DNA of 64,000 nucleotides. It comes from Dehalococcoidales bacterium (GTDB lineage: Bacteria > Chloroflexota > Dehalococcoidia > Dehalococcoidales > RBG-16-60-22). Of the stretch, positions 3,976-40,607 are shown piece by piece. The translations under genes were made by a program, and so were the position numbers. Within the stretch, counting starts at the first letter, position 1, and every line of letters starts with the position of its first letter. Where the stretch lies: the NCBI GenBank assembly GCA_050014095.1, contig JBEKDZ010000001.1, positions 142,560-206,559 on the forward strand. The letters run 5' to 3'. The notes under the pieces were generated by a model, which saw only the letters and a list, made by a program, of their open reading frames with translations, had not been told where the DNA came from and made no database searches.

Positions 3976-4989
3976 TTGAAAACTCGTATCGGCATTAACG
4001 GCTTCGGGCGCATCGGCAGGTTGACCTTAAGGGCTATCCTCCAGCGCCATAAAAACGATATCGAAGTGATGGCAGTCAACGACCTCGCGGATACCAAGAC
4101 CAATGCCCACCTTTTTAAGTGGGATAGCGTTTACGGTCGCTACCCGGGCGAAGTTGCCGCTAAAGATAAATCCATCGTTGTCGATGGGCAAGAAATCCAG
4201 GTAATCTCGGAACGTGAGCCCGCTGCCATACCCTGGAAGGATTATAAAGTCGACATTGTTATCGAGTCCACCGGCAGATTCACCGATGCCGCTAAAGCTA
4301 AAGCCCATACCCAGGGCGGCGCGAAAAAAGTCATTATCTCCGCCCCCGCCGATAACGAGGACGCTACTATCGTGCTCGGCGTTAACGAAGGCACCTACGA
4401 CGCTAAAAAACACACCGTTATATCTAATGCCTCCTGCACCACCAACGGCATCGCGCCGGCGGTTAAGGTGCTGCACGAAACTTTCGGCGTGACCAAGGGG
4501 CTGATGACCACCATCCACTCCTACACCAACGACCAGGTGGTGCTGGATATCGTCCACAGGGATATCCGGCGGGCTCGCGCTGCCGCCCTGAACATGATAC
4601 CCACCTCTACCGGCGCCGCCAAACTGGTGGGTAAGCTAATCGCTGGACTGGAAGGCAAGATTCATGGCTACTCCATGCGCGTGCCTACACCCACCGTCTC
4701 CGTTATCGACTTCGTCTGCAATACGCAAAAAGACGTCACTGTCGAGCAGGTCAACGAGGCGTTCAAGAAAGCCGCCGCGGGACAATATAAGGGCATCATC
4801 GAGTACTGCGAAGAAAAGCTGGTCAGTATGGACTTCAAGGGCAACCCGCATAGCTCTATCATCGACGCCCCCAGCACCATGGTCATCGGCGGGAACATGG
4901 TTAAAATCCTCGCCTGGTACGATAATGAGTGGGGCTATTCCTGCCGTCTCGGCGATTTGGTGGTCTATATCGCTTCTAAGGGTCTTTAA
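3976..4989 (+). CDS. gap: type I glyceraldehyde-3-phosphate dehydrogenase
   Basis: INGFGRIGR NAD-binding motif, catalytic SNASCTTN, WYDNEWGY near the C-terminus, and a TTG start with gaggagg RBS. Confidence 0.97.
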   Translation: MKTRIGINGFGRIGRLTLRAILQRHKNDIEVMAVNDLADTKTNAHLFKWDSVYGRYPGEVAAKDKSIVVDGQEIQVISEREPAAIPWKDYKVDIVIESTGRFTDAAKAKAHTQGGAKKVIISAPADNEDATIVLGVNEGTYDAKKHTVISNASCTTNGIAPAVKVLHETFGVTKGLMTTIHSYTNDQVVLDIVHRDIRRARAAALNMIPTSTGAAKLVGKLIAGLEGKIHGYSMRVPTPTVSVIDFVCNTQKDVTVEQVNEAFKKAAAGQYKGIIEYCEEKLVSMDFKGNPHSSIIDAPSTMVIGGNMVKILAWYDNEWGYSCRLGDLVVYIASKGL

Positions 4990-5055
4990 AGAAACCTAGA
5001 GCACCCCACGATGCCAAAAATCCTTATACTATTTGCGAATTTTTGTTCGTAATAA

Positions 5056-5085
5056 TTGACATTACGTCAAATTTGTACGTAAAAT
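5056..5085 (+). promoter_or_regulatory. candidate sigma70-type promoter of tubulin-like gene 1
   Basis: TTGACA (5056-5061), an 18-nt spacer, then TAAAAT (5080-5085). The -35 region forms the palindrome TTGAC-N5-GTCAA. Confidence 0.45.
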
Positions 5086-5114
5086 GGAGTACTAATCCTA
5101 GCGAAAAGTGAACC

Positions 5115-6290
5115 ATGAAACTAATTATTATCGGTATTGGACAGTGCGGCGGCAGAATCGCCGATGAGTTCGCCCGACTGAATAAAAGAGCGCACTCCTC
5201 ACACGGACTTAATATAATTACCGGCGCTTTTGCCGTTAATACCGATATCGCCGACCTTAGCGGTTTAGTCACCATCAAATCCACTTACGAGCGCATCCTC
5301 ATCGGCAACCAAAAAACGCAGGGTCACGGCGTCGGGAAAATCAACGAGTTGGGCGCCGAGATCGCCCACGAAGATGCCGATAAGGTTATCGAGGCAATCA
5401 GAAACACCGAAGGTTTTGCGGAAACCGATGCCTTTTTACTTACCGCTAGCGGGGCAGGCGGCACCGGCTCCGGCGCGATATCCGTAATCACGAAGCAGAT
5501 AAAAGAGCGCTATGTAGATAAACCGGTCTATAACCTCATCGTCCTTCCCTTCGAGCACGAAATCGTTACCGAGGATAGGACGGTTTATAATGTGGCTACC
5601 TGTCTTAAGTCCAGCTATCTTGTAGCTGATGCTATCTTTTTAGTGGATAACCAGCGGTTCGTGATGAAGGACTCCCCGCTTACCGCTAACCTCGCCCAGA
5701 TAAACCAGATGATTGTTAATCCGTTTTTTAATCTCCTCTGCGCCGGCGAGGAGAAAAAGCCCCAGTTCATCGGTGCTAAAATTCTCGATGCCGGTGACAT
5801 TATCCAGACACTGGTTGGCTGGACCGCCCTCGGCTATGGCCAATCGCAACCCCCTAAATCTAAATTCTTTTCGTCTAATGCCTCCCACGACTTTCGTGAT
5901 AAAGCCTCGGAAACCCAGCGGGGAACCTATGCCCTTGATGAGGCTATCAGCAATCTTTCCGTCAAGTGCAATCCGCTGGACTCCAAGCGCGCGCTATATA
6001 TTGTGTCCGCGCCATCTAAAGATATCAATGTTGAACTGGTCAAAGAACTCGGCACTTATATTAAAAACATCGCGCCTGAAGCGATTATCCGCAGCGGCGA
6101 CTACCCGAGAGAAAAAGGCAACCTTGATGTCACGTTAATCCTCTCGGAAATGAGTGATATGGAAGCAGTGAGGAGCTATTTCACCAAAACAATCGATCTT
6201 ATCGCTGAACTCAAGAAACGGCAGGAAGGTATGGTAAACGTACAGCGAGGGATTGATATCTCGATAAAAGACATCCCATCCCTGTTGTAG
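5115..6290 (+). CDS. tubulin/FtsZ-superfamily GTPase, CetZ/tubulin-like (paralog 1)
   Basis: T1 loop GIGQCGGRIA, tubulin signature SGAGGTGSG, GHGVGKINELGAEIA, VDNQR, T7-like ILDAGDIIQT, and a C-terminal KDIPSLL peptide. Confidence 0.85.
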   Translation: MKLIIIGIGQCGGRIADEFARLNKRAHSSHGLNIITGAFAVNTDIADLSGLVTIKSTYERILIGNQKTQGHGVGKINELGAEIAHEDADKVIEAIRNTEGFAETDAFLLTASGAGGTGSGAISVITKQIKERYVDKPVYNLIVLPFEHEIVTEDRTVYNVATCLKSSYLVADAIFLVDNQRFVMKDSPLTANLAQINQMIVNPFFNLLCAGEEKKPQFIGAKILDAGDIIQTLVGWTALGYGQSQPPKSKFFSSNASHDFRDKASETQRGTYALDEAISNLSVKCNPLDSKRALYIVSAPSKDINVELVKELGTYIKNIAPEAIIRSGDYPREKGNLDVTLILSEMSDMEAVRSYFTKTIDLIAELKKRQEGMVNVQRGIDISIKDIPSLL

Positions 6291-6371
6291 TTTTATTTTT
6301 CAAAAGAGTCGGAGCGTTTTTTTCCGTTTTAACTAAACCGCGTAAAATATACCCTTGGCTATTGACTCTAA

Positions 6372-7925
6372 CTATTTTTCAGTATCTTCGTTTTTCGGGT
6401 TTTTGGGTTTTGGTTGGTCTGACTTTTGCTTCTTGGTTTCGTACATCTTTGAAAGAATTTCCAGGCGCTCGGCCATTTTGCTTTTTGACTCTTTAGGCTC
6501 ATCTTTAGAAGCCGCATCGGATGCTTCTTTCTGTGTTTTATCGCCTCTGCCCGTTTTATCCAATCTCTCCATGAGTCTCTTAAGAGCATCTATTTCTGTT
6601 TTGCTGTCTTCAATAACGGGTCGATTAACCCCCTTGGGACTCTCCCTTAGCTCATCAATCGGTTCTTTCTTTTGACTCTGTTTCAAAGCATCTTGGTAGG
6701 GCTTTAACGATGCGTCAACACTTTCTTTGGAAATATGTCTGGTAGCTTCGACACGGCTAACCGCATCCTGGAACGCCGTCATGGATAGTCCGGCAACCTC
6801 CCTCGCCACCTTGGCTGATGCCTCCGTGGCGTCTTTAACGGCTTTTATCGTCCTATCAGCCGATACCTGCGCATCTCGAACTAACGCCTCCGCCACTTCA
6901 CGGGCTTCCTGTACCGCTGCCTCCGTCGCTTGCTTTGTTTCGCGGCTTATTTGCTCCGCACGGGCGATAGCCTCCTCGGTGGCATTTATCGTAGCTTCGG
7001 TCGCCTTACGGGCATCTCGAGCTACTTCTTCAACCTTTTTAATGGTTTCTTGGGTCAATTTGTTCGCTGCGTCGAAAGCCTCTTCATTTTCCTGGCTGAT
7101 TGCCTCAATTCGATCCATCGTTTCGTTCGCCGATTTCTGGGCAGTCTCGGCAAGCTCTCGGGAAGTCTTGCTAAGAACCTCCGCCCGCATAACGGCTTCC
7201 TCCGCCAACTTGGCGGCTGTTTCTACAGTTTTTCGGCTAAATTCGTTGATTTTATCTGCCCGGGCGTTGGTTTCCTTGGCGACTTTATTAGTTACATCGG
7301 CTGCATCCTGGGCTTCTCTGGCCATATGCTCCGCTCGTGCGGTAGCTTCCCGCGCCATTTTCACCGATTCTTCGGCAGCTGCCAGCGACGTTTTCACCGA
7401 TACTTCAACGATATTCATCGCCTTTTCAGATACTTCTTTGGCAGATTCCGCTATTCTCTTGGCTTCGCGGCTTATCTCCTCGATACGGGCCAAACCGTTT
7501 TGTGATAGCGCTAGTGCAGATTCGGCTGCATTCATAGCATCCTGACCGATTTTTTCCGCGCGGGCGATAGCCTCTTGGAAAGTCTTCACCAGCGCTTCCG
7601 CCGTTTCCTTTGGTCTTTTAGCAACATCCTCTGCCTTCTTGATAGCTTCGTCAGCGGCTCTTAAGGTTGCTACCATAGCTTCTTTTGAAGACTGGCTTAT
7701 TTTTTCCGCCCGGTCGATGGCTTCCTGAACAGCTTTTGTAGAGGCATCGGCGCTTGTCTTGACTTCTTTTTCGATATGCTCAAGCTGGCGCATGGCATCC
7801 TTGGCAGCCTCGATTGGTTTCTCGGTTGCCTCTTTGCTCTCCTCGTTTAAAGCTTCAGCCTTGTCTATCGCCTTTTCGAGGTCAGTGTCTTTACCTTTGT
7901 TCTCTTCCGGTAATTCTGGAGACAT
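6372..7925 (-). CDS. Ala/Glu/Lys-rich helical-repeat (coiled-coil-like) protein, 517 aa, no TM segment
   Basis: This is the longest ORF in the region, with RBS gaagggtggg upstream. It has 13 in-register 25-residue repeats (Glu at residues 24, 49 and so on to 324) and a Lys-rich tail. Confidence 0.7.
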   Translation of the reverse strand: MSPELPEENKGKDTDLEKAIDKAEALNEESKEATEKPIEAAKDAMRQLEHIEKEVKTSADASTKAVQEAIDRAEKISQSSKEAMVATLRAADEAIKKAEDVAKRPKETAEALVKTFQEAIARAEKIGQDAMNAAESALALSQNGLARIEEISREAKRIAESAKEVSEKAMNIVEVSVKTSLAAAEESVKMAREATARAEHMAREAQDAADVTNKVAKETNARADKINEFSRKTVETAAKLAEEAVMRAEVLSKTSRELAETAQKSANETMDRIEAISQENEEAFDAANKLTQETIKKVEEVARDARKATEATINATEEAIARAEQISRETKQATEAAVQEAREVAEALVRDAQVSADRTIKAVKDATEASAKVAREVAGLSMTAFQDAVSRVEATRHISKESVDASLKPYQDALKQSQKKEPIDELRESPKGVNRPVIEDSKTEIDALKRLMERLDKTGRGDKTQKEASDAASKDEPKESKSKMAERLEILSKMYETKKQKSDQPKPKNPKNEDTEK

Positions 7926-8085
7926 TACCCACCCTTCTAAATTACTATCTTATATTAGCATAAGCCGTTATTAGACTAATTATATTATTCAAGCGTCACT
8001 TTTTCAATAAAGATACAGTATTTATTTTAATATCCTGACTATTTCAATTACAGATTTGGGAAACACATTTTTATATTACGAGCAA

Positions 8086-8114
8086 TTGACTTTATGACGC
8101 TATTATATTATGCT
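8086..8114 (+). promoter_or_regulatory. candidate promoter of tubulin-like gene 2
   Basis: TTGACT (8086-8091), a 17-nt spacer, then TATGCT (8109-8114). The AATTGAC-TTA-G context resembles the 5056 promoter. Confidence 0.4.
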
Positions 8115-8163
8115 AAAAATAACACGACTTTATAGAAAAATAACGCTGAATTTGAGGTGAACT

Positions 8164-9336
8164 GTGAAACTAGTAGTTGTAGGACTAGGACAATGCGGCG
8201 GTAGAATCGCCGATGAGTTTGCCCGACTTAATAGTAGAGCCCGTGTCCAGCGTAATATGGAAATTATTACAGGTTGTTTCGCCGTGAATACCGATGCTTC
8301 TGATTTATTAGGATTGACCAGCATCCCCAAAGACCACCATCACCGCATCCTTATCGGCGGCCGTAAAACCGGCGGTCATGGCGTGGGCAAGATCAACGAG
8401 CTAGGCGCGGAGATAGCCAAAGAAGACTCTGATAAAATAATCGAGAATCTCCGCAATATCAAGAAATTCTTTGAAACAGATGCCTTCCTGCTTGTCGCCG
8501 GTACAGCAGGCGGTACCGGTTCCGGAGCTGTTTCCGTCGTCACGCAGCGTCTGAAGGAGCGTTACTTCGATAAGCCGGTATGGAACCTGCTCATCCTGCC
8601 TTTCGAACATGAAGAATCGACCGAAGAAAGGACGGTATTCAACGTAGCCACCTGTCTCAAATCCTGCTATTCGGTCGCCGATGCTGTTTTCCTGATTGAT
8701 AATCAAAGATACGTCAGAAAAGACTCTTCCATCCAGTCCAACCTTACCAAGATTAATCAAATGATTGTCGCCCCGTTCTATAATATCCTTTGCGCCGGTG
8801 AAGAGAAAAAATCCAAATATATCGGCTCCAAACTGCTCGATGCCGGCGATATCATCCAGACCGTGGTCGGCTGGACGGCCATCGGCTACGGCAAGACCGC
8901 CCAACCGGTATTTAAAATGCCCGAATTTGGGGATGACTACCGTAAGAAAGGCATGGAAATCCAGAAAGGTATCCGGGCGATGGATGAAGCCATCAGCGAG
9001 CTATCAATGAGATGTAATCCTGCCGAAGCGCGACGGGGTTTATACCTGGTCTCCGGTCCTCCTAAGGATATGAGCATCGACATGATCAAAGAAATCGGTG
9101 ATTATATGAGAGATATCGCCCCGGAAGCCATCATACGTAACGGCGATTATCCCCGGGATAGCGGCGTGGTCGATGTCACCATTCTCTTTTCCGAGTTTTC
9201 CGATGTCGAGAAGGTCAGGAACTACTATGTCCGCTCCTCCGACCTTATTCCCGAGTTCAAGAGACGGCAGGAAGTAACCGAAGACAAGTTAAGGTCTCTG
9301 GAAGATGCCTCCAAGGATATTCCTTCGCTGCTGTAA
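8164..9336 (+). CDS. tubulin/FtsZ-superfamily GTPase, CetZ/tubulin-like (paralog 2)
   Basis: GTG start with gaggtga RBS. Carries GLGQCGGRIA, GTAGGTGSG, GHGVGKINELGAEIA, IDNQR, LLDAGDIIQT and C-terminal KDIPSLL. It is collinear with paralog 1. Confidence 0.85.
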   Translation: MKLVVVGLGQCGGRIADEFARLNSRARVQRNMEIITGCFAVNTDASDLLGLTSIPKDHHHRILIGGRKTGGHGVGKINELGAEIAKEDSDKIIENLRNIKKFFETDAFLLVAGTAGGTGSGAVSVVTQRLKERYFDKPVWNLLILPFEHEESTEERTVFNVATCLKSCYSVADAVFLIDNQRYVRKDSSIQSNLTKINQMIVAPFYNILCAGEEKKSKYIGSKLLDAGDIIQTVVGWTAIGYGKTAQPVFKMPEFGDDYRKKGMEIQKGIRAMDEAISELSMRCNPAEARRGLYLVSGPPKDMSIDMIKEIGDYMRDIAPEAIIRNGDYPRDSGVVDVTILFSEFSDVEKVRNYYVRSSDLIPEFKRRQEVTEDKLRSLEDASKDIPSLL

Positions 9337-9363
9337 AAAATAATTAGAAACTAATGAGAGCTT

Positions 9364-9393
9364 AGGGGGGCATCAAAAACCCCCCTTCTTTTT
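9364..9393 (+). terminator. rho-independent terminator after tubulin-like gene 2
   Basis: Stem agggggg/cccccct with a 9-nt loop, followed by tcttttt. Confidence 0.6.
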
Positions 9394-9508: not shown

Positions 9509-9557
9509 TAAAATTTTTCTTGGGTAATAAAGCTTTTTGGAGTATAATAAAGCCATA

Positions 9558-11168
9558 ATGGCTTCTCAAGTATTTTATCGTAAGTGGCGCCCGCAACTTT
9601 TCTCGGAAATACAGGAGCATGTGGCTAAAACGCTGCTCAATGCTCTGGCTACCGAGCGGGTCTCTCATGCCTACCTTTTCTGCGGTCCCCGCGGCACCGG
9701 CAAAACCAGCACCGCCCGCATTCTGGCGAAGGCAGTTAACTGCCTTAACAACGGCAAAGGCGAGCCCTGCAATCAATGCGATATGTGCCAAGCCATTACC
9801 GAGGGCAGAGCTCTCGATGTTATTGAAGTGGATGCCGCCAGCAATACCGGCGTCGATGATATCCGCAACCTGCGGGAAAAGGTGAACTATGCCCCTAACC
9901 AGGCGCGGAAAAAGGTCTACATCATCGATGAAGTCCATATGTTGAGCACCAGTGCCTCGAATGCCCTGCTCAAAACGCTGGAAGAGCCGCCGCCTCATGT
10001 TATGTTTATCCTGGCTACCACCGAGGTGCAAAAGCTCCTGCCGACTATCCTCTCCCGCTGCCAGCGGTTCGATTTCCACCGCCACACGCTAACAAATACC
10101 GTAGCCGAGCTAAACCGCGTCTGCCAAGGCGAAGGCATTAAAGCCCAAACGGAAGCCTTAAAGCTCATCGCCCGGGCGGCAACCGGCAGCCTGCGCGATG
10201 CCCTGAATCTTTTACAACAGCTTAATACCTTCTACGGCAACGAGCTTGAACTCCATCATGCGCAGGCAATGCTCGGCATCTCCGGCGACCGTCGCTCCAG
10301 AGAGCTGGTTAACCACATCATCAATAAAGACACCGCCGCCGGGATTACCACGCTTAATAACGTAAATAATGACGGACTCGACCTGCGCCAGTTCCACCGC
10401 GAACTGGTGGAATATTTAAGGCTGCTGCTCCTCGTTAAAACCGGCTCCAGCGAGTCTATCGAGCTTACGGAAGATGATATTAAAGAGCTTAAGGAGCTGG
10501 CGAACAAAGCCACGCTGGCTCAAATATTAAAAGCCGTCAAGCGTTTCGGGCAGCTTGAGCTTAACCTCGATAACTATGCCACCCTCCCACTAGAGCTGGC
10601 GATAGTTGATTCTATCCTCCCGGATGCCGAAGCAAAAGAAGAATCCGTCCGCCGCTTGGAACCCGAACCGTTATCCCGGAAAACACCCCCCAAAGTATCC
10701 CCACCGCCACCCGAACAAAAAGCAGTTCGGCCGGAAGAGAAAAAGACCCCCAACCCCGAGCAACCGCCCAAATCAACGGTCGTAGAAAAACCCACTCCTC
10801 AAAAATCAACGGGGGTGGAAGCCGACCCCTTGACCACCGGCAACCCCATCGCCCAATTACAGAGCCAGTGGAGCAAGATGATTAACGAGGCGCCGGACGG
10901 CATGGGCAAGACCCCGGCGGCTGCCTTGCTGCGAAGCGCCCGACCCAAAGAAATAGCGGACGACGTTCTGGTGTTATCTTTTAAATACCCCATGCATAAA
11001 GAAAACATGGAAAAAATGGAAAATCAAAAAATGGCGGAGAAAATCGTGAGCAGCTTTATGGGGCGTCCCTGCAAAGTTCGCTGCGTTTACGAACACGAAA
11101 ACAACCACCTGGTCAAAGCGGCTTTAAAGATGGGCGCCCGTGTTATCGATACGGAGGAAACAACATGA
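9558..11168 (+). CDS. dnaX: DNA polymerase III subunit gamma/tau
   Basis: Walker A GPRGTGKTS, zinc module CNQCDMC, DEVHML, SRCQRF and a Pro/Lys-rich linker. I prefer ATG 9558 over the track's TTG 9537. Confidence 0.95.
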   Translation: MASQVFYRKWRPQLFSEIQEHVAKTLLNALATERVSHAYLFCGPRGTGKTSTARILAKAVNCLNNGKGEPCNQCDMCQAITEGRALDVIEVDAASNTGVDDIRNLREKVNYAPNQARKKVYIIDEVHMLSTSASNALLKTLEEPPPHVMFILATTEVQKLLPTILSRCQRFDFHRHTLTNTVAELNRVCQGEGIKAQTEALKLIARAATGSLRDALNLLQQLNTFYGNELELHHAQAMLGISGDRRSRELVNHIINKDTAAGITTLNNVNNDGLDLRQFHRELVEYLRLLLLVKTGSSESIELTEDDIKELKELANKATLAQILKAVKRFGQLELNLDNYATLPLELAIVDSILPDAEAKEESVRRLEPEPLSRKTPPKVSPPPPEQKAVRPEEKKTPNPEQPPKSTVVEKPTPQKSTGVEADPLTTGNPIAQLQSQWSKMINEAPDGMGKTPAAALLRSARPKEIADDVLVLSFKYPMHKENMEKMENQKMAEKIVSSFMGRPCKVRCVYEHENNHLVKAALKMGARVIDTEETT

Positions 11169-15066: not shown

Positions 15067-15453
15067 TTATTCCTCTCCCTTGACGGGAGAGGCTAGGTGA
15101 GGGTGAACTCTTTGTTTTAGAATTTCTGTAATAGTATATAACACTCCCTCTGTGTTTTGTAGAACATCATTATTCCAGAATCTTAAAACCCGATAACCCT
15201 TTTGCTCTAACAAGCGAGTCCTTTGCTCGTCTCGCTCTTTATTAGGTGTTTCGTTATGTTGACCGCCATCAATTTCAATAATCACCTTTTTCTCAAAACA
15301 AACAAAATCAGCGATATAATCTCCAACCTGTTGCTGCCGGCGGAACTTAGCTCCTTCCAGTTGCCTGTTACATATTTTATACCAAATGACCGTTTCGGCT
15401 TCGGTCTGCCTTGCTCGTAGCCCTTTGGCCAAGTTTGTTAGGGCATTTTTCAT
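15067..15453 (-). CDS. DUF559 (Vsr-like) endonuclease domain protein
   Basis: ETVIW, FRRQQ, YIADFVC, IIEIDGGQH, DEQRTRLLEQKGYRVLRFWNNDV. The C-terminal HPHLASPVKGEE is read out of a hairpin-repeat unit. Confidence 0.85.
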   Translation of the reverse strand: MKNALTNLAKGLRARQTEAETVIWYKICNRQLEGAKFRRQQQVGDYIADFVCFEKKVIIEIDGGQHNETPNKERDEQRTRLLEQKGYRVLRFWNNDVLQNTEGVLYTITEILKQRVHPHLASPVKGEE

Positions 15454-20863: not shown

Positions 20864-20951
20864 GGAGGGGTGTCCGAGTGGCCTATGGTGACGGTCTTGA
20901 AAACCGTTGTCCTTCTTTGAAGGACCGTGGGTTCGAATCCCACCCCCTCCG
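20864..20951 (+). tRNA. tRNA-Ser (anticodon UGA)
   Basis: Acceptor stem ggagggg/cccctcc plus discriminator G. Anticodon stem acggt/accgt with loop cuUGAaa. Long variable arm gtccttc-tttg-gaaggac. T arm gtggg-ttcgaat-cccac. No encoded CCA. Confidence 0.9.
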
Positions 20952-31303: not shown

Positions 31304-31750
31304 ATGAAAGCATCGGAAGGGAAAATCGGGCGGGTATTTGTCTTAAGACTTGAAGACGGCGACATGGTGCCGGCTTGTATCGAGGAATTTGCAGCAAAAA
31401 AAGCCATAAAAGTGGGCCACGTTATCCTAATCGGGGGGATTGGGGGCGGACAGGTGGTCGTGGGACCGCGGGACTCTCAAGAAATGCCGCCCGACCCCGT
31501 TCTGCTCACCGTCGACGGCGCGCACGAGGTGGAGGGTTTAGGCATTATCGCGCCGGATAAGGACGGCAAGCCTGTTTTGCATATCCACGCTTCTCTGGGG
31601 AGAGGTGGGAGGACTTTAACCGGCTGCCTGCGCCCGGGCGTTAAAACCTGGCTGGTGGGCGAGGCGCTTATTTACGAGATACTGGGGGCCAACGTAAAAA
31701 GGCTGCCGGATAAACGGAGCGGGTTTAACCTGATGGAGATGTTGAAATAA
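31304..31750 (+). CDS. PPC (DUF296) domain DNA-binding protein
   Basis: GRVFVLRLEDGDMV, GGIGGGQVVVG and LHIHASLG fit my recollection of the DUF296/PPC fold. Confidence 0.7.
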   Translation: MKASEGKIGRVFVLRLEDGDMVPACIEEFAAKKAIKVGHVILIGGIGGGQVVVGPRDSQEMPPDPVLLTVDGAHEVEGLGIIAPDKDGKPVLHIHASLGRGGRTLTGCLRPGVKTWLVGEALIYEILGANVKRLPDKRSGFNLMEMLK

Positions 31751-31993
31751 TTATTTTGGTAACGTGGAGATAGCAGTTTGTAACAATTGTAATAATTCAG
31801 GCCACAATGCTGCTAATACCATACCTACAATTACTGCCTCTATCCTTTTAGTAACAAAGGTTAATCCTGCACTGCCAAAAAGAAATATTAAAGGAATTCC
31901 TGTATAAATAATCCATTCTATTTGAGTGACTGCTCCCCAGATTAGTCCGATGATAGTAAGGATAGATCCGACAACTAAAAAAATTCCTTTCAT
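31751..31993 (-). CDS. small membrane protein (80 aa, 3 hydrophobic segments)
   Basis: AT-rich with RBS gtgaggtag upstream. Its stop abuts the DUF296 stop with no spacer. Confidence 0.5.
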   Translation of the reverse strand: MKGIFLVVGSILTIIGLIWGAVTQIEWIIYTGIPLIFLFGSAGLTFVTKRIEAVIVGMVLAALWPELLQLLQTAISTLPK

Positions 31994-32077
31994 TTTTCTA
32001 CCTCACTTGTTCGTCGTTTTTAAGCGGAGGGTAGGTAGCATCCCCTCCGCTTAATATGACTACATTATGTATGTTAC

Positions 32078-32329
32078 TTAACGATTGCCATAGGTTTGCG
32101 TTAATTCATGACAAGGAATGCATAACGCTTCACAATTTGATAAAGTATCCGGGCCACCAGCAAGCACAGATACAATATGATGTGCATGCCATTGACCGTT
32201 CCGGTTGAAAGTACTAGGACACCTTCCACCATGATGAGGTGCGTTCAATCCATCGTGTTGCCTATGACACTCACAACGTCCGCCTGATCTACTAAAAGCC
32301 TGGTCCTTTACTGCCTCTGAAAATGCCAT
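32078..32329 (-). CDS. minimal stand-alone HNH endonuclease (83 aa)
   Basis: GGRCECH...WHAHHIVSVLAGGPDTLSNCEALCIPCH is a complete HNH/zinc-finger core. Confidence 0.8.
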   Translation of the reverse strand: MAFSEAVKDQAFSRSGGRCECHRQHDGLNAPHHGGRCPSTFNRNGQWHAHHIVSVLAGGPDTLSNCEALCIPCHELTQTYGNR

Positions 32330-32493
32330 ATATCACTCACTTTCTCAAATACTCGTCTACGGGAGGTAATCGATAACCTACTTGACTCTTTGGGCAACCC
32401 CGTGATACAATTCCCCTGTTTCTACTTAGTCCCCATAGGACGGCATATGAAACCTCTTGGCTACCGCTAGGGGGTTTCATGCTTTATATAACT

Positions 32494-32521
32494 AAAAAAA
32501 CCTCCAATTTCGGAGGCTTTT
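32494..32521 (-). terminator. bidirectional-looking terminator hairpin
   Basis: An A7 run, cctcc-aatttc-ggagg, then cTTTT. On the minus strand the stem is followed by T7. Confidence 0.4.
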
Positions 32522-32679
32522 GAGGTTACATTACCGATAAAAGGTAGCAACAACTAACCTACAAAAGCCTTCTCCTTTCTTTTGTTGTTTCGCAAACGCA
32601 ACATATACGCTTGTTTCACTTTTATTAAACACCCAATCCCGAGAAAATGTCAATAGTTATTGAAACTTTTTTTCCTTAA

Positions 32680-33100
32680 TTCTTCTTTATCCTCCCCCTT
32701 CCTTTGGTAAAGGAAGGGGTTAAGGGGGTGGGGGTTAAAAACTCCCTCATTCCCTCTTTACGAAAGAGGGACAAGCGATCCTCTCCCTTTCGTAAAGGGA
32801 GATAAAGAGGGTTTTTAAATATCAAACAGGCAGTGAGATTGCTACGTCACTTCGTTCCTCGCAATGACAATGAAGAAAATCTCGCTTAATCCCTTCAGGG
32901 TGAACCCTCCTTTATAAGGAGGTAGACGGGTAAAGGGGCGGGGGTGGCAAAATCCTTCTCCATCTCCCTTTTCGAAAGGGAGACGATGTCACTTTACTTC
33001 TTCAATCATCATCTTAAACCTCACGTTTGTCCCCCTTTGAAAAAGGGGGAATAAGGAGGATTTTTGAGTGCTGGATTCCCGATCAAGCCGGGAATGACGG
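32680..33100. repeat. dense array of about 10 hairpin repeats from all families
   Basis: Units include ccccttcctttggtaaaggaagggg, ccctctttacgaaagaggg, tctccctttcgtaaagggaga, gagattgc...gcaatgac and ccttcagggtgaacc. Also cctcctttataaggagg, tctcccttttcgaaagggaga, tccccctttgaaaaaggggga and ctggattcccgatcaagccgggaatgacgg. Confidence 0.8.
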
Positions 33101-33128
33101 AGAGCGGAAAGAAGTGGGCTTATCCCAC

Positions 33129-33157
33129 TTGACATTTTATCCCACATATTATAATAT
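33129..33157 (+). promoter_or_regulatory. candidate promoter of the toxin-antitoxin pair
   Basis: TTGACA (33129-33134) followed by tataatat (33150-33157). AT-rich palindromes downstream could serve as an operator. Confidence 0.4.
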
Positions 33158-33222
33158 AACTAATATGATATTGTATTTTTTAATATATAAAAAATATATA
33201 TAAGGTATAGTTAGGTAAATAT

Positions 33223-33504
33223 ATGGCAATAGCAATAAAATTTAAAGATTTCGTCAGGATTTCAAAGGGAGTTAAGCCGGACAATAAAAAGCGAGTGGTC
33301 TTGCCTAAGCAAGTAGTGGGGGAAGACATCACATTTAATATATACCACAACAGCCTGGGACAGATACTCTTAGACCCGCAAATAACCATTCCGGCGTCCG
33401 AGGCATGGCTCTTTAAAAATCCCAAGTCTTTAAATTTAGTCCGGCAGGGTCTGGCTGATGCCGCCAACGGCAAGCTATCAAAAGTCGACCTTAAGTCTTT
33501 ATAA
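33223..33504 (+). CDS. AbrB/SpoVT-like antitoxin candidate
   Basis: KRVVLPKQVV resembles the looped-hinge-helix motif. The ORF is 93 aa and lies 12 nt upstream of a toxin-like ORF. Confidence 0.55.
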   Translation: MAIAIKFKDFVRISKGVKPDNKKRVVLPKQVVGEDITFNIYHNSLGQILLDPQITIPASEAWLFKNPKSLNLVRQGLADAANGKLSKVDLKSL

Positions 33505-33515
33505 GGTTAAGCGTT

Positions 33516-33809
33516 TTGTTTAAGCTTATTTGGGTGGATAAAGCCAGGGAAACGTATAACTCACTTAAAGCTAATCCATCAGATAAAGCGCGCTATAATG
33601 CCATTAAGAAAACCCTTTTATACCTCGCTCAAAATCCCCGCCACAATAGCCTCCAGACTCATCCTTTTTCAAGTTTACAGGGACCTAACGGCGAAAGAGT
33701 GTTCGAGGCATATGCCCAACAGAAAACACCTGCAGCCTATAGAGTGTTCTGGTATTATGGTTCAACCAGAGGCACAATCGTGATATTGGCCATTACTCCT
33801 CACCCGTAA
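33516..33809 (+). CDS. RelE/ParE-superfamily toxin candidate
   Basis: 97 aa with a C-terminal AAYRVFWYYGSTRGTIVILAITPHP, typical of RelE/ParE-type toxins. TTG start. Confidence 0.55.
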   Translation: MFKLIWVDKARETYNSLKANPSDKARYNAIKKTLLYLAQNPRHNSLQTHPFSSLQGPNGERVFEAYAQQKTPAAYRVFWYYGSTRGTIVILAITPHP

Positions 33810-33928
33810 TAACCCTTCCATCTTTTACTTTTGATTTGTGGTTTTGAGATTTAAAATTGTGACTTTTATTACAGAATATTGTGCTACAATACTATAAACT
33901 AAAACCATTAAATATAGCGAGGTGAAAT

Positions 33929-34138
33929 ATGCAAATCAGCGCGCGCAACGTCCTCAAAGGCAAGGTAAAAAAGGTCACGCCGGGAGCCGTCAACTCGGAA
34001 ATTATCCTTGAAGTAGCCGGCGGCGTGGAAATGGTCTCTATCATCACCAAGTCCTCCGCGGAACGGCTGGGACTCAAACCCGGCAAAGAAGTCTACGCCA
34101 TCGTCAAAGCTTCCAACGTCATGATAGGTATTGATTAG
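33929..34138 (+). CDS. molybdopterin-binding (Mop/TOBE) domain protein
   Basis: MQISARNVLKGKVKKV...SEIILEV...AIVKASNVMIG is the canonical 69-aa Mop fold. Confidence 0.85.
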   Translation: MQISARNVLKGKVKKVTPGAVNSEIILEVAGGVEMVSIITKSSAERLGLKPGKEVYAIVKASNVMIGID

Positions 34139-34144
34139 TAAAAT

Positions 34145-34260
34145 CTCCCTTAATCCCTCCTTACGAAGGAGGGACAAACAATCGTCTCCCCTTCGTAAGG
34201 GGAGAGAAGAGAGGGATTTTAGAGTGCGAATTTCCTTTCCCCTTGGCAATGACATCAGGC
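34145..34260. repeat. hairpin-repeat cluster
   Basis: ccctccttacgaaggaggg (34155-34173), tctccccttcgtaaggggaga (34185-34205), and a ttggcaatgac fragment. Confidence 0.75.
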
Positions 34261-34394
34261 CTGTACACCTCGATACACCTTGATACACCTTGGTATGGGA
34301 AAAAACCCTCACCCAAATAAATGTTATCCCCGTTGTCCATTCCGCCTCCCCGTCGGTATACTTTAAGTAGAAAACACTTGCACCGGGGGGCTAG

Positions 34395-34643
34395 ATGCCA
34401 GCTAACACTTATTTTCTATTTGCCATCTTCTTGCTGTTCTGTCTCTGGGCAGTTATCGCCTTCAGCGTGCACATCCTCAAGCCCCTCCAGACGCGCTGGG
34501 CAGTTAATCAAGCCCGCAGGATGGTTGCCGACGGTAAAGTAAAACACGACTGGCAGTTCCGCAACGTCTATCGCATGCTGGCGACCTCTAAAGACGACCT
34601 CGAAGCTGCCAAGCTCTGGCAGATGCTGGATAGAATGAAATAA
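34395..34643 (+). CDS. small membrane-anchored hypothetical protein
   Basis: An N-terminal TM helix (YFLFAIFLLFCLWAVIAFSV) followed by a charged helix. Confidence 0.45.
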   Translation: MPANTYFLFAIFLLFCLWAVIAFSVHILKPLQTRWAVNQARRMVADGKVKHDWQFRNVYRMLATSKDDLEAAKLWQMLDRMK

Positions 34644-34818
34644 TCGACTTAATCATTGTCTCCTTAGCCAAGGGGGCCGGCGCAGACTCCGGGACCTAAT
34701 ACTAAAAAAAGAGGTATTCCCGGCAAGGCGCCGACCCCCTGTTTTATCCTGAGCGCCAGCCGAAGGATTATTTCCATTGCTTCCTTTATGGTATATACTT
34801 AAATAAGAGGTGCATTCG

Positions 34819-34941
34819 ATGACATTGGTATATATCATTATCGGAGGGGTAGTGGGGGGAGGTTTGGGCTGGCTTTTCGACCGGGTGACCAGACGCGAGC
34901 AGCCGGAGGCAGCTGCTATCGATTCTCAACCCCGCACTTGA
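34819..34941 (+). CDS. small TM peptide (40 aa), ORF continues in frame past TGA to 35031
   Basis: RBS aagaggtg lies 7 nt upstream. A Gly-rich TM segment (VYIIIGGVVGGGLGWLF) is present. A second TM-like segment follows the in-frame TGA. Confidence 0.35.
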   Translation: MTLVYIIIGGVVGGGLGWLFDRVTRREQPEAAAIDSQPRT

Positions 34942-35120
34942 GGGAGACCAAACACCTGTCCCTGGTCAGGGACGCTCTACGGCATTTTCCTGGGGGTAAT
35001 CGGATCTGCCTTGATTATTACCAACATTTAACCTTTCTTCTGCACCCGCAGATATTGTATCCTTTGAGTCGAAAGATTATACTTTTTAAGAACTAATATT
35101 TCCCCTTGCGGAGGCAGCCG

Positions 35121-37861: not shown

Positions 37862-38699
37862 ATGGTGTTAAAAATTTGATGAAATAGGTTACTGGTCTGA
37901 AATAAAATTATCAATTATTGAAAAGTACTCTTCAGCTTATACAAAAGCGTTTTCAGGTGCCAATTATCATTATCTTCATCACGTCTATATAGATGGTTAC
38001 GCAGGTTCCGGTACACACATATCAAAAACGACTAAAAAAGAAATACGTGGAAGTCCGCAGATTGCACTAGACACTAAACCTCCTTTTAAAGAGTTTTATT
38101 TTATTGATATTAATGGGGACAAAGTAGCTGAATTAAATAAAATAACAGCAAACCGGCCTGAGGCCCATATCTTAGAAGGTGACTGCAACAAAAGACTACT
38201 AACAGATGTATTTCCGAAAGTTAAATGGGAAGACTACCGAAGAGGGCTCTGCTTACTTGATCCATATGGTTTACACTTGAATTGGGAAGTGATCAAAACT
38301 GCGGGGCAAATGAAGAGCATTGAGATATTCTTAAATTTTCCCTTGATGGACATGAACCGAAATGTTTTTTGGAGACATCCAGAAAAAGTTGACCCTGCAG
38401 ACATAAAACGTATGGATTCTTTTTGGGGAGATAAATCTTGGAGAGAGGTTGTATATTACCAAACTCCAAATCTTTTTGGAGAAGCTATAGACAAGAAAGA
38501 AGATAATAGAACGATAGCACTAGCCTTTCAGAAACGGCTTAAAGATGTAGCAAAATTCAAATTTGTCCCAGACCCAATACCTATGCGTAATTCTATCAGG
38601 AATATTGTGTATTATCTATTTTTTGCTTCTAATAATAAAACAGGAGAAAATATTGCAAAATACATCTTTACTAAATATCGTGATCGAGGGATGAGATAA
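37862..38699 (+). CDS. tcmP: three-Cys-motif partner protein TcmP-like (RsmD-like methyltransferase fold), start disrupted by a 1-nt frameshift in an A5 run
   Basis: The frame is open from 37872 (KFDEIGYWSEIKLSIIEKY...IDGYAGSGTH...LLDPYG) with no ATG/GTG/TTG before 38277. ATG 37862 reads MVLKI then stops. Removing one A at 37870-37874 fuses them to MVLKFDEIGYW. Confidence 0.7.
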
Positions 38700-39433
38700 T
38701 GTCATTATCCACCGCCATTGAATGGACAGACTCTACATGGAATCCTGTGACAGGCTGCACAAAAGTAAGTTCAGGGTGCATGAACTGCTATGCAGAACGT
38801 TTGGCATTACGTTTACAGGCTATGGGAAATCCAAGTTATAAAAATGGCTTCTCTGTAACTTTACATGAAGACGCACTAACTCTCCCATTAAAATGGAAAA
38901 AACCACAGACGATATTTGTTAATTCAATGAGTGATTTATTCCATGAGAATATCCCCCTAGAATTTATCTTACGCGTGTTCGATATTATGCGCCGCGCGGA
39001 TTGGCATTGTTTTCAGATACTGACTAAAAGGTCAGAAAGAATGTTAGAATTGAGTCCGCGACTGCCTTGGGTATCAAATATCTGGATGGGTATAACAGTA
39101 GAAGCAGAAAATTACATGTATCGTATTGAACACCTTAAAGGAACTGGCGCGGCGGTTAAATTCTTATCCCTTGAACCGCTTCTTAGCCCCATCAATAATC
39201 TCTCTCTAGCCGGAATAGATTGGGTTATTGTTGGTGGAGAATCCGGTCCAAATGCCAGACCAATGAAAAAAGACTGGGTTGTTGATATTAGAAATCAATG
39301 CCAAAATAAAAACGTACCATTTTTCTTTAAACAGTGGGGTGGGATTAACAAGAAAAAGGCAGGCAGAGAACTCGACGGGCGTATATGGAGTGAAATACCA
39401 TCTCTTTTACCCAACGCTCAATTATCTTTTTAA
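38699..39433 (+). CDS. DUF5131 (phage Gp37/Gp68) family three-Cys-motif protein
   Basis: IEWTDSTWNPVTGCTKVSSGCMNCYAE (Cx6Cx2C), VGGESGPNARPM and FFFKQWGG. The start overlaps the tcmP stop (TAATG). Confidence 0.9.
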   Translation: MSLSTAIEWTDSTWNPVTGCTKVSSGCMNCYAERLALRLQAMGNPSYKNGFSVTLHEDALTLPLKWKKPQTIFVNSMSDLFHENIPLEFILRVFDIMRRADWHCFQILTKRSERMLELSPRLPWVSNIWMGITVEAENYMYRIEHLKGTGAAVKFLSLEPLLSPINNLSLAGIDWVIVGGESGPNARPMKKDWVVDIRNQCQNKNVPFFFKQWGGINKKKAGRELDGRIWSEIPSLLPNAQLSF

Positions 39434-39518
39434 TTTCTGCCCCCCTTTTCTTCCCAATCCTTCTCCTCTTCGCGTCTCTTTCCACTTCTTTGCCCTGTGG
39501 TATACACCACACTTATGG

Positions 39519-39655
39519 TTATGTCAATCGGTGAAGCATGATTCTCAATAAAGTCCCATATTTATGTAATCTTAATATTTGCCATATGGCGAATTTATAT
39601 TATTTATGTCAATCTTTATATTCAGTTGGTAAGCTTAACATAGATTATTGACATA
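39519..39655. promoter_or_regulatory. four TTATGT(C)AATC boxes at about 43-nt spacing (three direct, one inverted)
   Basis: Boxes at 39519-39529, 39562-39571 and 39604-39614, plus inverted attgacata at 39647-39655. The last overlaps a TTGACA -35-like hexamer. A palindrome gccatatggc lies at 39581-39590. Confidence 0.35.
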
Positions 39656-39707
39656 GCATCGCCGGTAATTTAATAGTTTTTACATGATGCTTTCAGGAGT
39701 GAGTGAA

Positions 39708-39845
39708 ATGGAAAATAAAGAAAAAAGCAGAGAAAAGGTATTAGTTCCGGTTCGTCACCATAAGCCTACCCAGGAAAAGGAACACGTGGAGGAACAAAAT
39801 AAGGCGAGAGCCTGGAAGATGCCGAGGCGTTGGCACACCTATTAA
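39708..39845 (+). CDS. small basic ORF (45 aa), hypothetical
   Basis: aggagtgagtgaaATG gives a good SD. The product is MENKEKSREKVLVPVRHHKPTQEKEHVEEQNKARAWKMPRRWHTY. It ends 21 nt before the regulator gene. Confidence 0.3.
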   Translation: MENKEKSREKVLVPVRHHKPTQEKEHVEEQNKARAWKMPRRWHTY

Positions 39846-39866
39846 AGTGAAGGTGGAGATATAAGG

Positions 39867-40607
39867 GTGGAGAAGACAAAACTTAATATAATAAAGCTCT
39901 ACACGGTGGAAGAGGATAAGATATATCCTGACTTATGCAGGGCTGTCCTCCAATTAAAAGAGCCAATAGAATTATTGGGGGTCTTAAATAGTCGCGATAT
40001 TGGTACCTTAAGGAAAACTGTGTTGACTCTTGCTCCCGATGTGGTATTAGTGAGTATTAAGAACCTTAAAGCAGATATCGTCAAAGAATTAGAACAAATT
40101 CATACGGACTATCCTAAAATGGGGATAGTCCTTGTGTTTGGGTTCTGTAATGCTCAAGATATCGAGCAATTACGCCGGCTGGCCCTAATAAAAAGTGGGG
40201 GAGGCATAGCACTTTTTCTAAAACGACCACCAGATAGAATGGAGTGGTTATGTATGGCTATATCAGCCGTCAGTCAAGGTCAGTTTATCCTTGACGCACC
40301 ACTTGCCGCCTTTATGTTCGCCGAGAAACCAGGACCTGCATTCCTGAAACAATTCACTCCCAGGGAGTTAGAAATTCTGAACTTGCTGGCGAACGGGTAC
40401 ACGAACTTGGCAATAGCGGGAGCCCTTTACATCGATAATAAGACAGTAGAGCATCACTTAAATAACATGTATAGTAAGCTTAAAGAAAATTATGAATTTG
40501 GTCAAAAGCATCTAAGAGTCAGCGTGGCGAAGCTATACTTGGACGCGATAGGTGATTCAGGTGGCGGAAAGAACTTGATTATTCGCAGTTCAGTTAATCA
40601 GATGTAA
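39867..40607 (+). CDS. LuxR/NarL-family regulator with degenerate (pseudo-)receiver domain
   Basis: C-terminal HTH TPRELEILNLLANGYTNLAIAGALYIDNKTVEHHLNNMYSKL. The receiver-like N-domain has Ser63 (PDVVLVSIK) where the phospho-Asp is expected. GTG start with RBS. Confidence 0.8.
   Translation: MEKTKLNIIKLYTVEEDKIYPDLCRAVLQLKEPIELLGVLNSRDIGTLRKTVLTLAPDVVLVSIKNLKADIVKELEQIHTDYPKMGIVLVFGFCNAQDIEQLRRLALIKSGGGIALFLKRPPDRMEWLCMAISAVSQGQFILDAPLAAFMFAEKPGPAFLKQFTPRELEILNLLANGYTNLAIAGALYIDNKTVEHHLNNMYSKLKENYEFGQKHLRVSVAKLYLDAIGDSGGGKNLIIRSSVNQM

Follow-up and report, generated by a model that had tools for sequence, protein, structure and literature searches.

Two CetZ-like tubulin-superfamily GTPases and a helical repeat protein encoded side by side in a Dehalococcoidales bacterium

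Introduction

Do some bacteria possess, apart from FtsZ, a tubulin-superfamily cytoskeleton of the kind described from archaea? The question is raised by a stretch of 64,000 nt from a Dehalococcoidales bacterium (contig JBEKDZ010000001.1 of assembly GCA_050014095.1, positions 142,560 to 206,559; hereafter the window), in which two genes for tubulin-superfamily GTPases, here called A and B, lie on either side of an oppositely oriented gene for an Ala/Glu/Lys-rich helical repeat protein (CC). These three open reading frames (ORFs) had been picked out in a preliminary description of the DNA and are present with the coordinates and strands given there (Table 1). We report here that A and B belong, with little room for doubt, to the CetZ family of cytoskeletal GTPases, and that the gene for A has CC as a conserved neighbour.

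CetZ is ranked in current reviews as the third branch of the tubulin superfamily, with a mechanism that is still poorly understood, and has been described as specific to archaea (PMC9856176, PMC11621097). CetZ1 controls the change from plate to rod shape in Haloferax, and division does not depend on the CetZs known so far, whose action is on shape (PMC9856176). In the bacterial order concerned here, Dehalococcoides mccartyi and all high-quality Dehalococcoidales genomes examined have lost the wall-synthesis genes of the division and cell wall (dcw) cluster, have a surface-layer (S-layer)-like wall, and keep mraZ-mraW-ftsA-ftsZ together (PMC10608941).

A and B are assigned to the CetZ family

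Both proteins matched the Pfam Tubulin profile PF00091 (A, 1.2e-31; B, 1.1e-32; 111-114 bits against a cut-off of 33) and the Pfam CetZ_C profile PF21011 (A, 5.2e-16 and 59.0 bits; B, 2.3e-16 and 60.2 bits; cut-off 21.6), the latter over profile positions 2-175 of 180. The proteins reached 51.2 and 61.1 bits on the FtsZ equivalog NCBIfam TIGR00065, whose cut-off is 295.2, and aligned with its N-terminal half only. FtsZ_C (PF12327) was not among the Pfam matches of either protein, and the TubZ-type profile Tubulin_2 (PF13809) reached 16.5 and 14.8 bits, under its cut-off of 27.

When A was searched against the PDB sequences with phmmer, the best match was Haloferax volcanii CetZ1 (4b46; 1.8e-42, 149 bits, full length), with CetZ2 (4b45, 114 bits) and a Methanosaeta CetZ (3zid) also at the top, the best FtsZ at 49 bits and the tubulins at ~38 bits (BtubB ~38, BtubA 25). 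Likewise, an AlphaFold2 model of A, built from a 55-sequence alignment (predicted local distance difference test score, pLDDT, 94.2; predicted template-modelling score, pTM, 0.90), placed CetZ1 4b46 (TM-score 0.94, root-mean-square deviation 1.8 Å), CetZ2 4b45 and Methanosaeta thermophila CetZ 3zid at ranks 1-3 in Foldseek, with all FtsZs below them.

In a neighbour-joining (NJ) tree, for which the CetZ1 and CetZ2 sequences were read off the PDB search alignments, a split with 100% bootstrap had two FtsZ outgroups on one side and the CetZ-like proteins, including both Haloferax CetZs and the bacterial clade, on the other. The bacterial CetZ-like sequences formed one clade (82-84% bootstrap in the NJ trees), the placement of which among the archaeal groups had <20% support in a tree that covered CetZ-like sequences and the two FtsZs. 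On the Pfam, equivalog, PDB and Foldseek results, together with the split from FtsZ in the NJ tree, we assign A and B to the CetZ family. A plain duplication of FtsZ, with the equivalog score far under cut-off, CetZ_C matched and CetZ the best hit by sequence and by fold, was rejected, and the non-FtsZ identity proposed earlier for the pair holds.

The family is large. More than 5,000 database proteins match A, those that are named coming from Dehalococcoidales, Dehalococcoidia or 'Chloroflexi bacterium RBG', and some relatives already carry the database label 'tubulin-like protein CetZ'; when a library clustered at 50% identity was searched, 820 clusters passed E<=0.001. Among the named relatives outside the bacteria, those nearest to A are from Nitrososphaerales archaea, at about 31-34% identity, and the identity of A and B to archaeal members is 29-34%.

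Homologs and syntenic loci alike are named Dehalococcoidales, Dehalococcoidia or Chloroflexi, and the host of A and B is a Dehalococcoidales bacterium, not the archaeon that descriptions of CetZ lead one to expect. We read this, a matter of distribution and not a molecular feature, as a widening of the known host range of CetZ that does not put A and B outside the family. Sparse CetZ-like sequences in the Chloroflexota-Dehalococcoidia, with values of ~1e-10 for a hidden Markov model of the CetZ C-terminal domain, have been mentioned before (Santana-Molina et al. 2023, PMC9871819), and are almost certainly of the same family as A and B. The preliminary description, in noting that CetZ is described as archaeal, was in line with the reviews, but not with this passing mention. 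Presence in the class is already on record and A and B are not a new protein family. The mention amounts to one sentence, without analysis, and that sentence describes no A and B orthogroups, helical partners, tail or family size. In the literature searched, the two orthogroups, the scale of the family, the helical partner genes and the FtsZ-like tail appear undescribed.

GTPase motifs, tail at the C-terminus, and M-loop

A and B align over their full length, with 242 of 392 positions identical (62%), 80% positives and 3 gaps, far beyond chance and close to the end-to-end paralogy at about 60% identity that had been estimated by eye. Each of the motifs listed at that time is found in both proteins at matching positions (A/B): GQCGGRIA (the T1 loop) at 9/9, GHGVGKINELGAEIA at 70/71, GGTGSG (T4) at 115/116, DNQR at 178/179 and the T7-like LDAGDIIQT at 224/225. 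Under a proper alignment the GTP-binding loops and the acidic residue of T7 are retained, D228 of A being aligned with the catalytic E218 of CetZ1 and nearly invariant across 21 diverse bacterial members; in CetZ1, the mutation E218A blocks function (bioRxiv 10.1101/2024.04.08.588506). A and B thus carry a complete GTP pocket (T1 GQCGG, T4 GGTGSG), the T7 acid and a CetZ-type C-terminal domain.

The C-terminal tail KDIPSLL is shared without exception by the 12 A and 11 B sequences of the clade that has both genes around CC, and of 116 family members nearly all terminate in [KR]D[IL]P[ST]LL. E. coli FtsZ has DIPAFL near its C-terminus, and it is this C-terminal peptide that docks FtsZ on FtsA and ZipA in E. 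coli. As a sequence, KDIPSLL resembles both the FtsZ peptide and the docking tail of CetZ1, LESLF, which is required for rod formation (bioRxiv 10.1101/2024.04.08.588506). The anchor of archaeal FtsZ is SepF (PMC8178401). The region matching the CetZ1 M-loop has the conserved pattern hydrophobic, K/R, x, P/F, F ... DFRxK, and is of low confidence in the AlphaFold2 model of A. With its hydrophobic and basic residues, this pattern recalls CetZ1, in which assembly at the envelope requires the hydrophobic tip of the M-loop.

The A and B orthogroups have 131 conserved columns in common and only 2 fixed differences (S327N, F356Y), and the comparison of columns gave no asymmetry of the alpha/beta-tubulin kind. 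Homopolymers and mixed A/B polymers are both possible, and the heteropolymer suggested earlier for the pair is neither favoured nor disfavoured.

Two CetZ-like proteins, P0122 (499 aa) and P0128 (480 aa), have an extra C-terminal region of ~100 residues around and beyond the PSL tail motif, so that the motif is internal in some family members.

Gene order and the A and B orthogroups

A scan of genome contigs with a single protein query returned close relatives only (13 Dehalococcoidales/Dehalococcoidia loci and one Verrucomicrobiales FtsZ), and the wider sampling came from a metagenome scan with an alignment as the query. The order gap, A(+), CC(-), B(+), dnaX recurs, on contigs that span it, in 17 related loci besides the window: 11 genome loci that were long enough and six metagenome loci (L022, L023, L029, L032, L037, L046). 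The identities of A across these loci are 61-87%, and the conservation of the triad in relatives, on which the earlier reading of the locus had been made to depend, is thus established.

The A orthologs form a clade with 100% bootstrap, as do, separately, the B orthologs, and the two subtrees mirror each other. In a tree of 116 members labelled by gene context, the A type tracks CC and small160, a gene for a small helical protein described below, and the B type tracks dnaX. Wherever the contig reaches far enough, an A-type gene is followed by convergent small160 and/or CC, and wherever there is downstream sequence a B-type gene stands directly upstream of dnaX. In seven loci with unrelated flanks the only common genes are the A-type tubulin, CC (7/7) and small160 (4/7 by protein clustering). 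In four others (L038, L040, L062, L063) a single B-type tubulin lies between gap and dnaX without CC. The more distant homologs, whose identity is no higher than 56%, are solitary genes.

The robust linkage is therefore that of A with helical proteins, and the bracketing of CC by two tubulins is a lineage-specific yet stable juxtaposition with B-dnaX. A dedicated helical partner of the pair had been suggested; the linkage is indeed conserved, but CC is tied to A and not to both tubulins. It may even be that chance accounts in part for the triad: A together with its helical partners would be one unit and B, in its place upstream of dnaX, another, the two being adjacent in this lineage by coincidence, with B acting by itself and unconnected with CC. 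The seven loci with unrelated flanks, where no second tubulin is within range, the four with a lone B type and the promoter-like site predicted for each gene would all fit such independence. We nevertheless regard it as doubtful: the adjacency is kept in 17 related loci across the range of A identities given above, the 131 shared columns and identical tail mean that A and B could share partners or co-polymerise, and the CC and B genes diverge from a shared intergenic region of 239 bp.

A third group of CetZ-like paralogs, about 40-44% identical to A and B, was seen at L034:4763-5851, L039:4763-5848, L102:10001-11176 and L021:7567-8778, and has among its members a protein of Dehalogenimonas sp., the gene of which stands alone in its locus. 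The third-group copies of L034 and L039 are directly upstream of the B-type copy, between gap and dnaX. In L021 the CetZ-like gene has beside it a bacterial 16S rRNA gene (L021:4561-7071) that is split into two Rfam matches (4561-5239, 6145-7071) by an insertion of ~900 bp carrying a LAGLIDADG-like ORF (5267-5872). The split 16S had suggested a host from the candidate phyla radiation for L021, an idea that was dropped since the same clade holds the Dehalogenimonas protein. On L020 (1-17257), resolvase, IS605 OrfB/TnpB-like and IS66 transposase genes surround a CetZ-like gene (P0148 type, 418 aa) that belongs to a further clade, and some members of the family may move with mobile DNA.

The helical repeat protein CC and small160

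Alanine, glutamate and lysine make up 45% of CC, and no transmembrane segment was found in it by Kyte-Doolittle analysis (highest 19-residue mean 0.6), in agreement with the composition and the lack of such a segment stated before. It consists of about 15 repeats of 25 residues, with an autocorrelation at lag 25 of 1.09, where shuffled sequences reached 0.19 at most. This period recurs in each of the 11 CC homologs tested (520-765 aa), which differ mostly by whole repeat blocks and were taken from syntenic loci, the low-complexity composition defeating a word-index homolog search. CC evolves faster than A. In comparison with relatives its third codon positions change most (227, versus 95 and 58 at the other two), which indicates that the minus-strand frame is real and under purifying selection. 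The plus-strand ORFs antisense to it (6355-6675, 6727-7545 and 6930-7505) are by-products of the biased repeat composition.

Conservation in CC is highest over the ~220 residues at the N-terminus, in a block that precedes the tail and in an amphipathic helix at the C-terminus, KMAERLEILSKMYETKK. A single-sequence AlphaFold2 model of moderate confidence (pLDDT 68) has long helices at residues 8-101, 106-250 and 255-396, broken at a conserved KRPK motif and near residue 252, and followed by a disordered linker and short C-terminal helices. CC matched no family above threshold in Pfam, NCBIfam or PHROG, and Foldseek of the model gave nothing at E<=0.001, only generic long helices. As modelled, CC is best described as a cytoplasmic helical rod outside the known families searched. 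It adjoins an A-type gene in every locus long enough, those with unrelated flanks included, and is probably a functional partner of A.

In most relatives a helical protein of ~145-176 aa, small160, is encoded between the A-type tubulin and CC (Table 1). It has a conserved core, PLDEV..AERAYAAYMDAERQVAKAY, and a C-terminal RDETIEQAWQIYSKIAR, and belongs to no Pfam family. Among the triad loci, small160 is missing only from the window (6291-6371) and its four closest relatives; since these form one subclade, it was probably lost once.

A possible role in cell shape, and the alternatives

On balance we lean towards the reading that the organism has, beside a canonical FtsZ, two CetZ GTPases whose GTP-dependent filaments shape the envelope, with CC acting on those of A. 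What we infer is that A and B would each polymerise head to tail with GTP and that, as happens in CetZ1 and FtsZ, an active site would be completed by the T7 loop of the neighbouring subunit. Such filaments would lie under the membrane of peptidoglycan-free, S-layered cells, tethered by the M-loop and/or by a partner docked on the KDIPSLL tail, and would organise cell shape or envelope alongside FtsZ division without driving it. CC would bind, bundle or anchor A filaments, and small160 could be another accessory factor in the relatives. Taken by itself, the role in cell shape or envelope organisation, for which the argument is one of analogy, is plausible at a credence just short of even.

Several points weigh against this reading. 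That a canonical FtsZ is present elsewhere in the genome is expected from literature at the level of the order, which is the sole basis for it. The role in shape draws on Haloferax by analogy and has indirect support from a single correlation, in the proteomics of D. mccartyi: a 'FtsZ/Tubulin GTPase' (btf_0551), like a hypothetical protein encoded close by (btf_0548), was abundant in the disc-shaped cells of pure culture, and both were lower or undetected in the barrel-shaped cells of co-culture; canonical FtsZ also dropped in the co-culture (PMC8163811), and btf_0548-0551 could not be placed among A, B or the other types, there being no D. mccartyi sequence among the matches listed. The link between CC and A is one of synteny, the two genes being convergent, with separate promoter-like sites and no operon, and the bracketing may be positional, B occurring without A or CC in several loci. 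Finally, one 25-residue repeat per filament subunit is not supported, as the helix span of ~3.75 nm differs from the reported CetZ1 spacing of 4.2 nm.

In a bolder form, which we put forward only tentatively and consider rather unlikely, the Dehalococcoidales would use an archaeal-type CetZ cytoskeleton as their main shape system (producing, for example, the disc of Dehalococcoides), tethered by DIPSLL, organised by CC and small160, and probably owed to an ancient transfer from archaea. It would then be the bacterial equivalent of the CetZ system of Haloferax, equipped with accessory proteins of its own that had not been known.

An alternative that we hold to be improbable is that A and B are extra division proteins, which help the canonical FtsZ to build or constrict its ring, in the manner of archaeal FtsZ1/FtsZ2, and would dock by the DIPSLL tail on FtsA or SepF. 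KDIPSLL does resemble the FtsZ peptide DIPAFL, the Dehalococcoidales are without the wall-synthesis part of the divisome (PMC10608941), and the tubulin-like protein and FtsZ of D. mccartyi fell together in the slowly dividing cells of co-culture (PMC8163811). However, CetZ1 has a hydrophobic tail (LESLF) too, so that such a tail is not specific to FtsZ, and the known CetZs, whose type A and B represent rather than that of FtsZ, are dispensable for division (PMC9856176). A and B have the superfamily fold, GGTGSG and the DIPxFL-like peptide in common with canonical FtsZ, but their T1 is GQCGG and not GGGGxN, the equivalog failed, FtsZ_C is not matched and the genes are not by ftsA or mraZ. There are no division genes among the neighbours of A and B, where the ftsA or mraZ-rsmH context of a dcw remnant is not seen, and E. 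coli FtsZ and FtsA as tblastn queries gave no match in the 64-kb window (FtsZ at 1e-3). Annotation and these blank searches bear out what had been said of the setting, namely gap and dnaX as neighbours and no ftsA adjacent.

Less probable still is an obligate A-B heterodimer that polymerises as a unit, like alpha/beta-tubulin or BtubA/BtubB. The paralogs are side by side in many genomes, with mirrored subtrees, and BtubA and BtubB of Prosthecobacter are likewise neighbouring paralogs of the tubulin superfamily, in a bacterium with an FtsZ as well. Yet A and B each have the full GTP pocket and the T7 acid, their two fixed differences leave nothing like the asymmetry of alpha and beta, and many loci have only one type within range. 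From BtubA/BtubB themselves A and B are distant (~38 bits), being CetZ and not tubulin proper, without heterodimer asymmetry and with a helical repeat partner that is not BtubC.

A DNA segregation system of TubZ/PhuZ type, suggested by the adjacent replication and recombination genes (dnaX-ybaB-recR) and by a weak PHROG match (1.5e-5, the only one), to a family of unknown function, is very improbable given the Tubulin_2 score of 16.5 against 27, a tblastn search of 72,556 plasmids that returned haloarchaeal CetZ genes only (31-34% identity), the lack of a TubR-like adaptor at the locus, its chromosomal housekeeping context and the occurrence of A-type genes away from dnaX.

Comparison with known systems and significance

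For the reading of A and B as CetZ filaments, the nearest model is archaeal CetZ (CetZ1 4B46, CetZ2 4B45, Methanosaeta thermophila 3ZID), the best match in sequence and fold, with the same Tubulin plus CetZ_C architecture, a GQxGG T1, the T7 acid at E218, a hydrophobic M-loop, a short hydrophobic C-terminal tail, several paralogs per genome, and a host with an S-layer and without murein. A and B differ in their bacterial host, in forming a clade of their own, in having Asp and not Glu at T7, and in the tail (DIPSLL, not LESLF). They differ too in the conserved helical partner genes of A; the word 'coiled' is absent from the text of a survey of archaeal cetZ neighbourhoods (PMC9856176).

TubZ and PhuZ are likewise non-FtsZ GTPases of the superfamily in bacteria, from which A and B are set apart by the Tubulin_2 cut-off, a housekeeping context, no TubR-like adaptor and no plasmid or phage relatives found. 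FtsZl1 and FtsZl2 are extra FtsZ-superfamily genes beside canonical FtsZ and are predicted to be unrelated to division (PMC2875224). FtsZl1 has no recognisable T6-H7 elements, a coiled-coil domain of its own and linked vWA genes (Makarova and Koonin 2010, PMC2875224), and FtsZl2 is proteobacterial, with a 300-aa alpha/beta C-terminal region (PMC2875224). A and B, in contrast, have a full T7 loop, CetZ_C, a length of 390-391 aa and no vWA neighbour, FtsZl1 being set apart by its description. EzrA, ZapB and eukaryotic microtubule-associated proteins offer CC an analogy in manner of working only, as long helical non-membrane proteins that go with a filament-forming GTPase; CC has no detectable relationship to them in sequence or fold. 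To our knowledge, the 25-residue repeat is not known from any of the three.

A large and diversified bacterial CetZ family, with several orthogroups, shows that the boundary between the domains has been crossed. The host order independently lost the murein wall and gained an S-layer, which would link CetZ to the type of envelope and not to an ancestry in the archaea. Conserved candidate partners are at hand in the rod of 25-residue repeats and in small160, of a kind not mentioned in the archaeal survey. How Dehalococcoides, an organism of bioremediation, and other wall-less Dehalococcoidia keep a defined disc shape would also find a testable explanation in the shape reading.

Features of the locus and promoter-like signals

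Table 1. Position and character of the genes and predicted signals of the locus. Positions are those of the window, except for small160, where they refer to the related locus named.
Feature	Position	Strand	Remarks
Paralog A, CetZ-family tubulin-superfamily GTPase	5115..6290	+	391 aa
Paralog B, CetZ-family tubulin-superfamily GTPase	8164..9336	+	390 aa, GTG start
Ala/Glu/Lys-rich helical repeat protein (CC)	6372..7925	-	517 aa, conserved putative partner of paralog A
Predicted sigma70-like promoter of A	5056..5085	+	TTGACA, 18 nt, TAAAAT; 11/12 consensus positions; consensus match only
Predicted sigma70-like promoter of CC gene	7979..8007	-	TTGAAA, 17 nt, TATAAT; 11/12 consensus positions; consensus match only
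Predicted sigma70-like promoter of B	8086..8114	+	TTGACT, 17 nt, TATGCT; 9/12 consensus positions; consensus match only
Terminator-like hairpin after A	6310..6326	+	stem-loop then T run; pattern match only
small160, examples (others too)	L004:2884-3366, L022:6619-7131, L065:7242-7739	-	

The triad is flanked by gap (3976-4989) and dnaX (9537-11168). Further upstream are the genes for enolase (eno), a GIY-YIG protein, a metallo-beta-lactamase and an HGD-D protein, and dnaX is followed by ybaB, recR, recO and serS. The CC gene is convergent with that for A.

Promoter-like sites were predicted separately for A, CC and B. Upstream of the A orthologs a TTGAC box followed by TAAAAT is kept in 16 of 17 loci examined, and a TTGAC box is present upstream of all 17 B orthologs examined; the predicted CC promoter precedes its start codon, at 7925, by 54 nt. 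Terminator-like sites were no more numerous in the region than expected from shuffled sequence. The 5' regions of A and B had been thought to be paralogous. They do share a -35 box, a GGTGA Shine-Dalgarno sequence and the region of the start codon, but nothing aligns beyond these, and paralogous upstream DNA was rejected, the likeness being reduced to promoter and Shine-Dalgarno consensus elements that are conserved separately in A orthologs and in B orthologs.

Just upstream of the B promoters in L006, L007, L013, L022 and L023, ~60-70 nt upstream of the B-type start codon, stands the perfect palindrome CGCAATTGCG, which has the form ACGCAATTGCGT in three of these five. A related sequence, TTGCGGAATTGCG, lies inside the spacer between the -35 and -10 boxes of A-type promoters in L007, L010, L011, L013, L022 and L023. 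The two could be sites for a shared regulator; neither is evident in the window itself.

Other observations in the window

Small stand-alone genes of nuclease type are set between housekeeping genes at two places: the GIY-YIG gene (1299-1649, +) in the interval between eno and the metallo-beta-lactamase gene, and a DUF559 (Vsr-like) gene (15067-15453, -) between serS and the gene for a class II aminoacyl-tRNA synthetase. Two stretches have a low GC content, 31750-35100 (0.42) and 38000-40000 (0.385), compared with ~0.50 elsewhere in the window. The first contains short ORFs only, without Pfam matches, and the second an ORF of 140 aa, again without a Pfam match, and a DUF5131 gene (38699-39433); both may be foreign islands. 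Searches of the window with Rfam and ARAGORN detected a single RNA gene, that for a tRNA-Ser with anticodon TGA (20864-20951, +).

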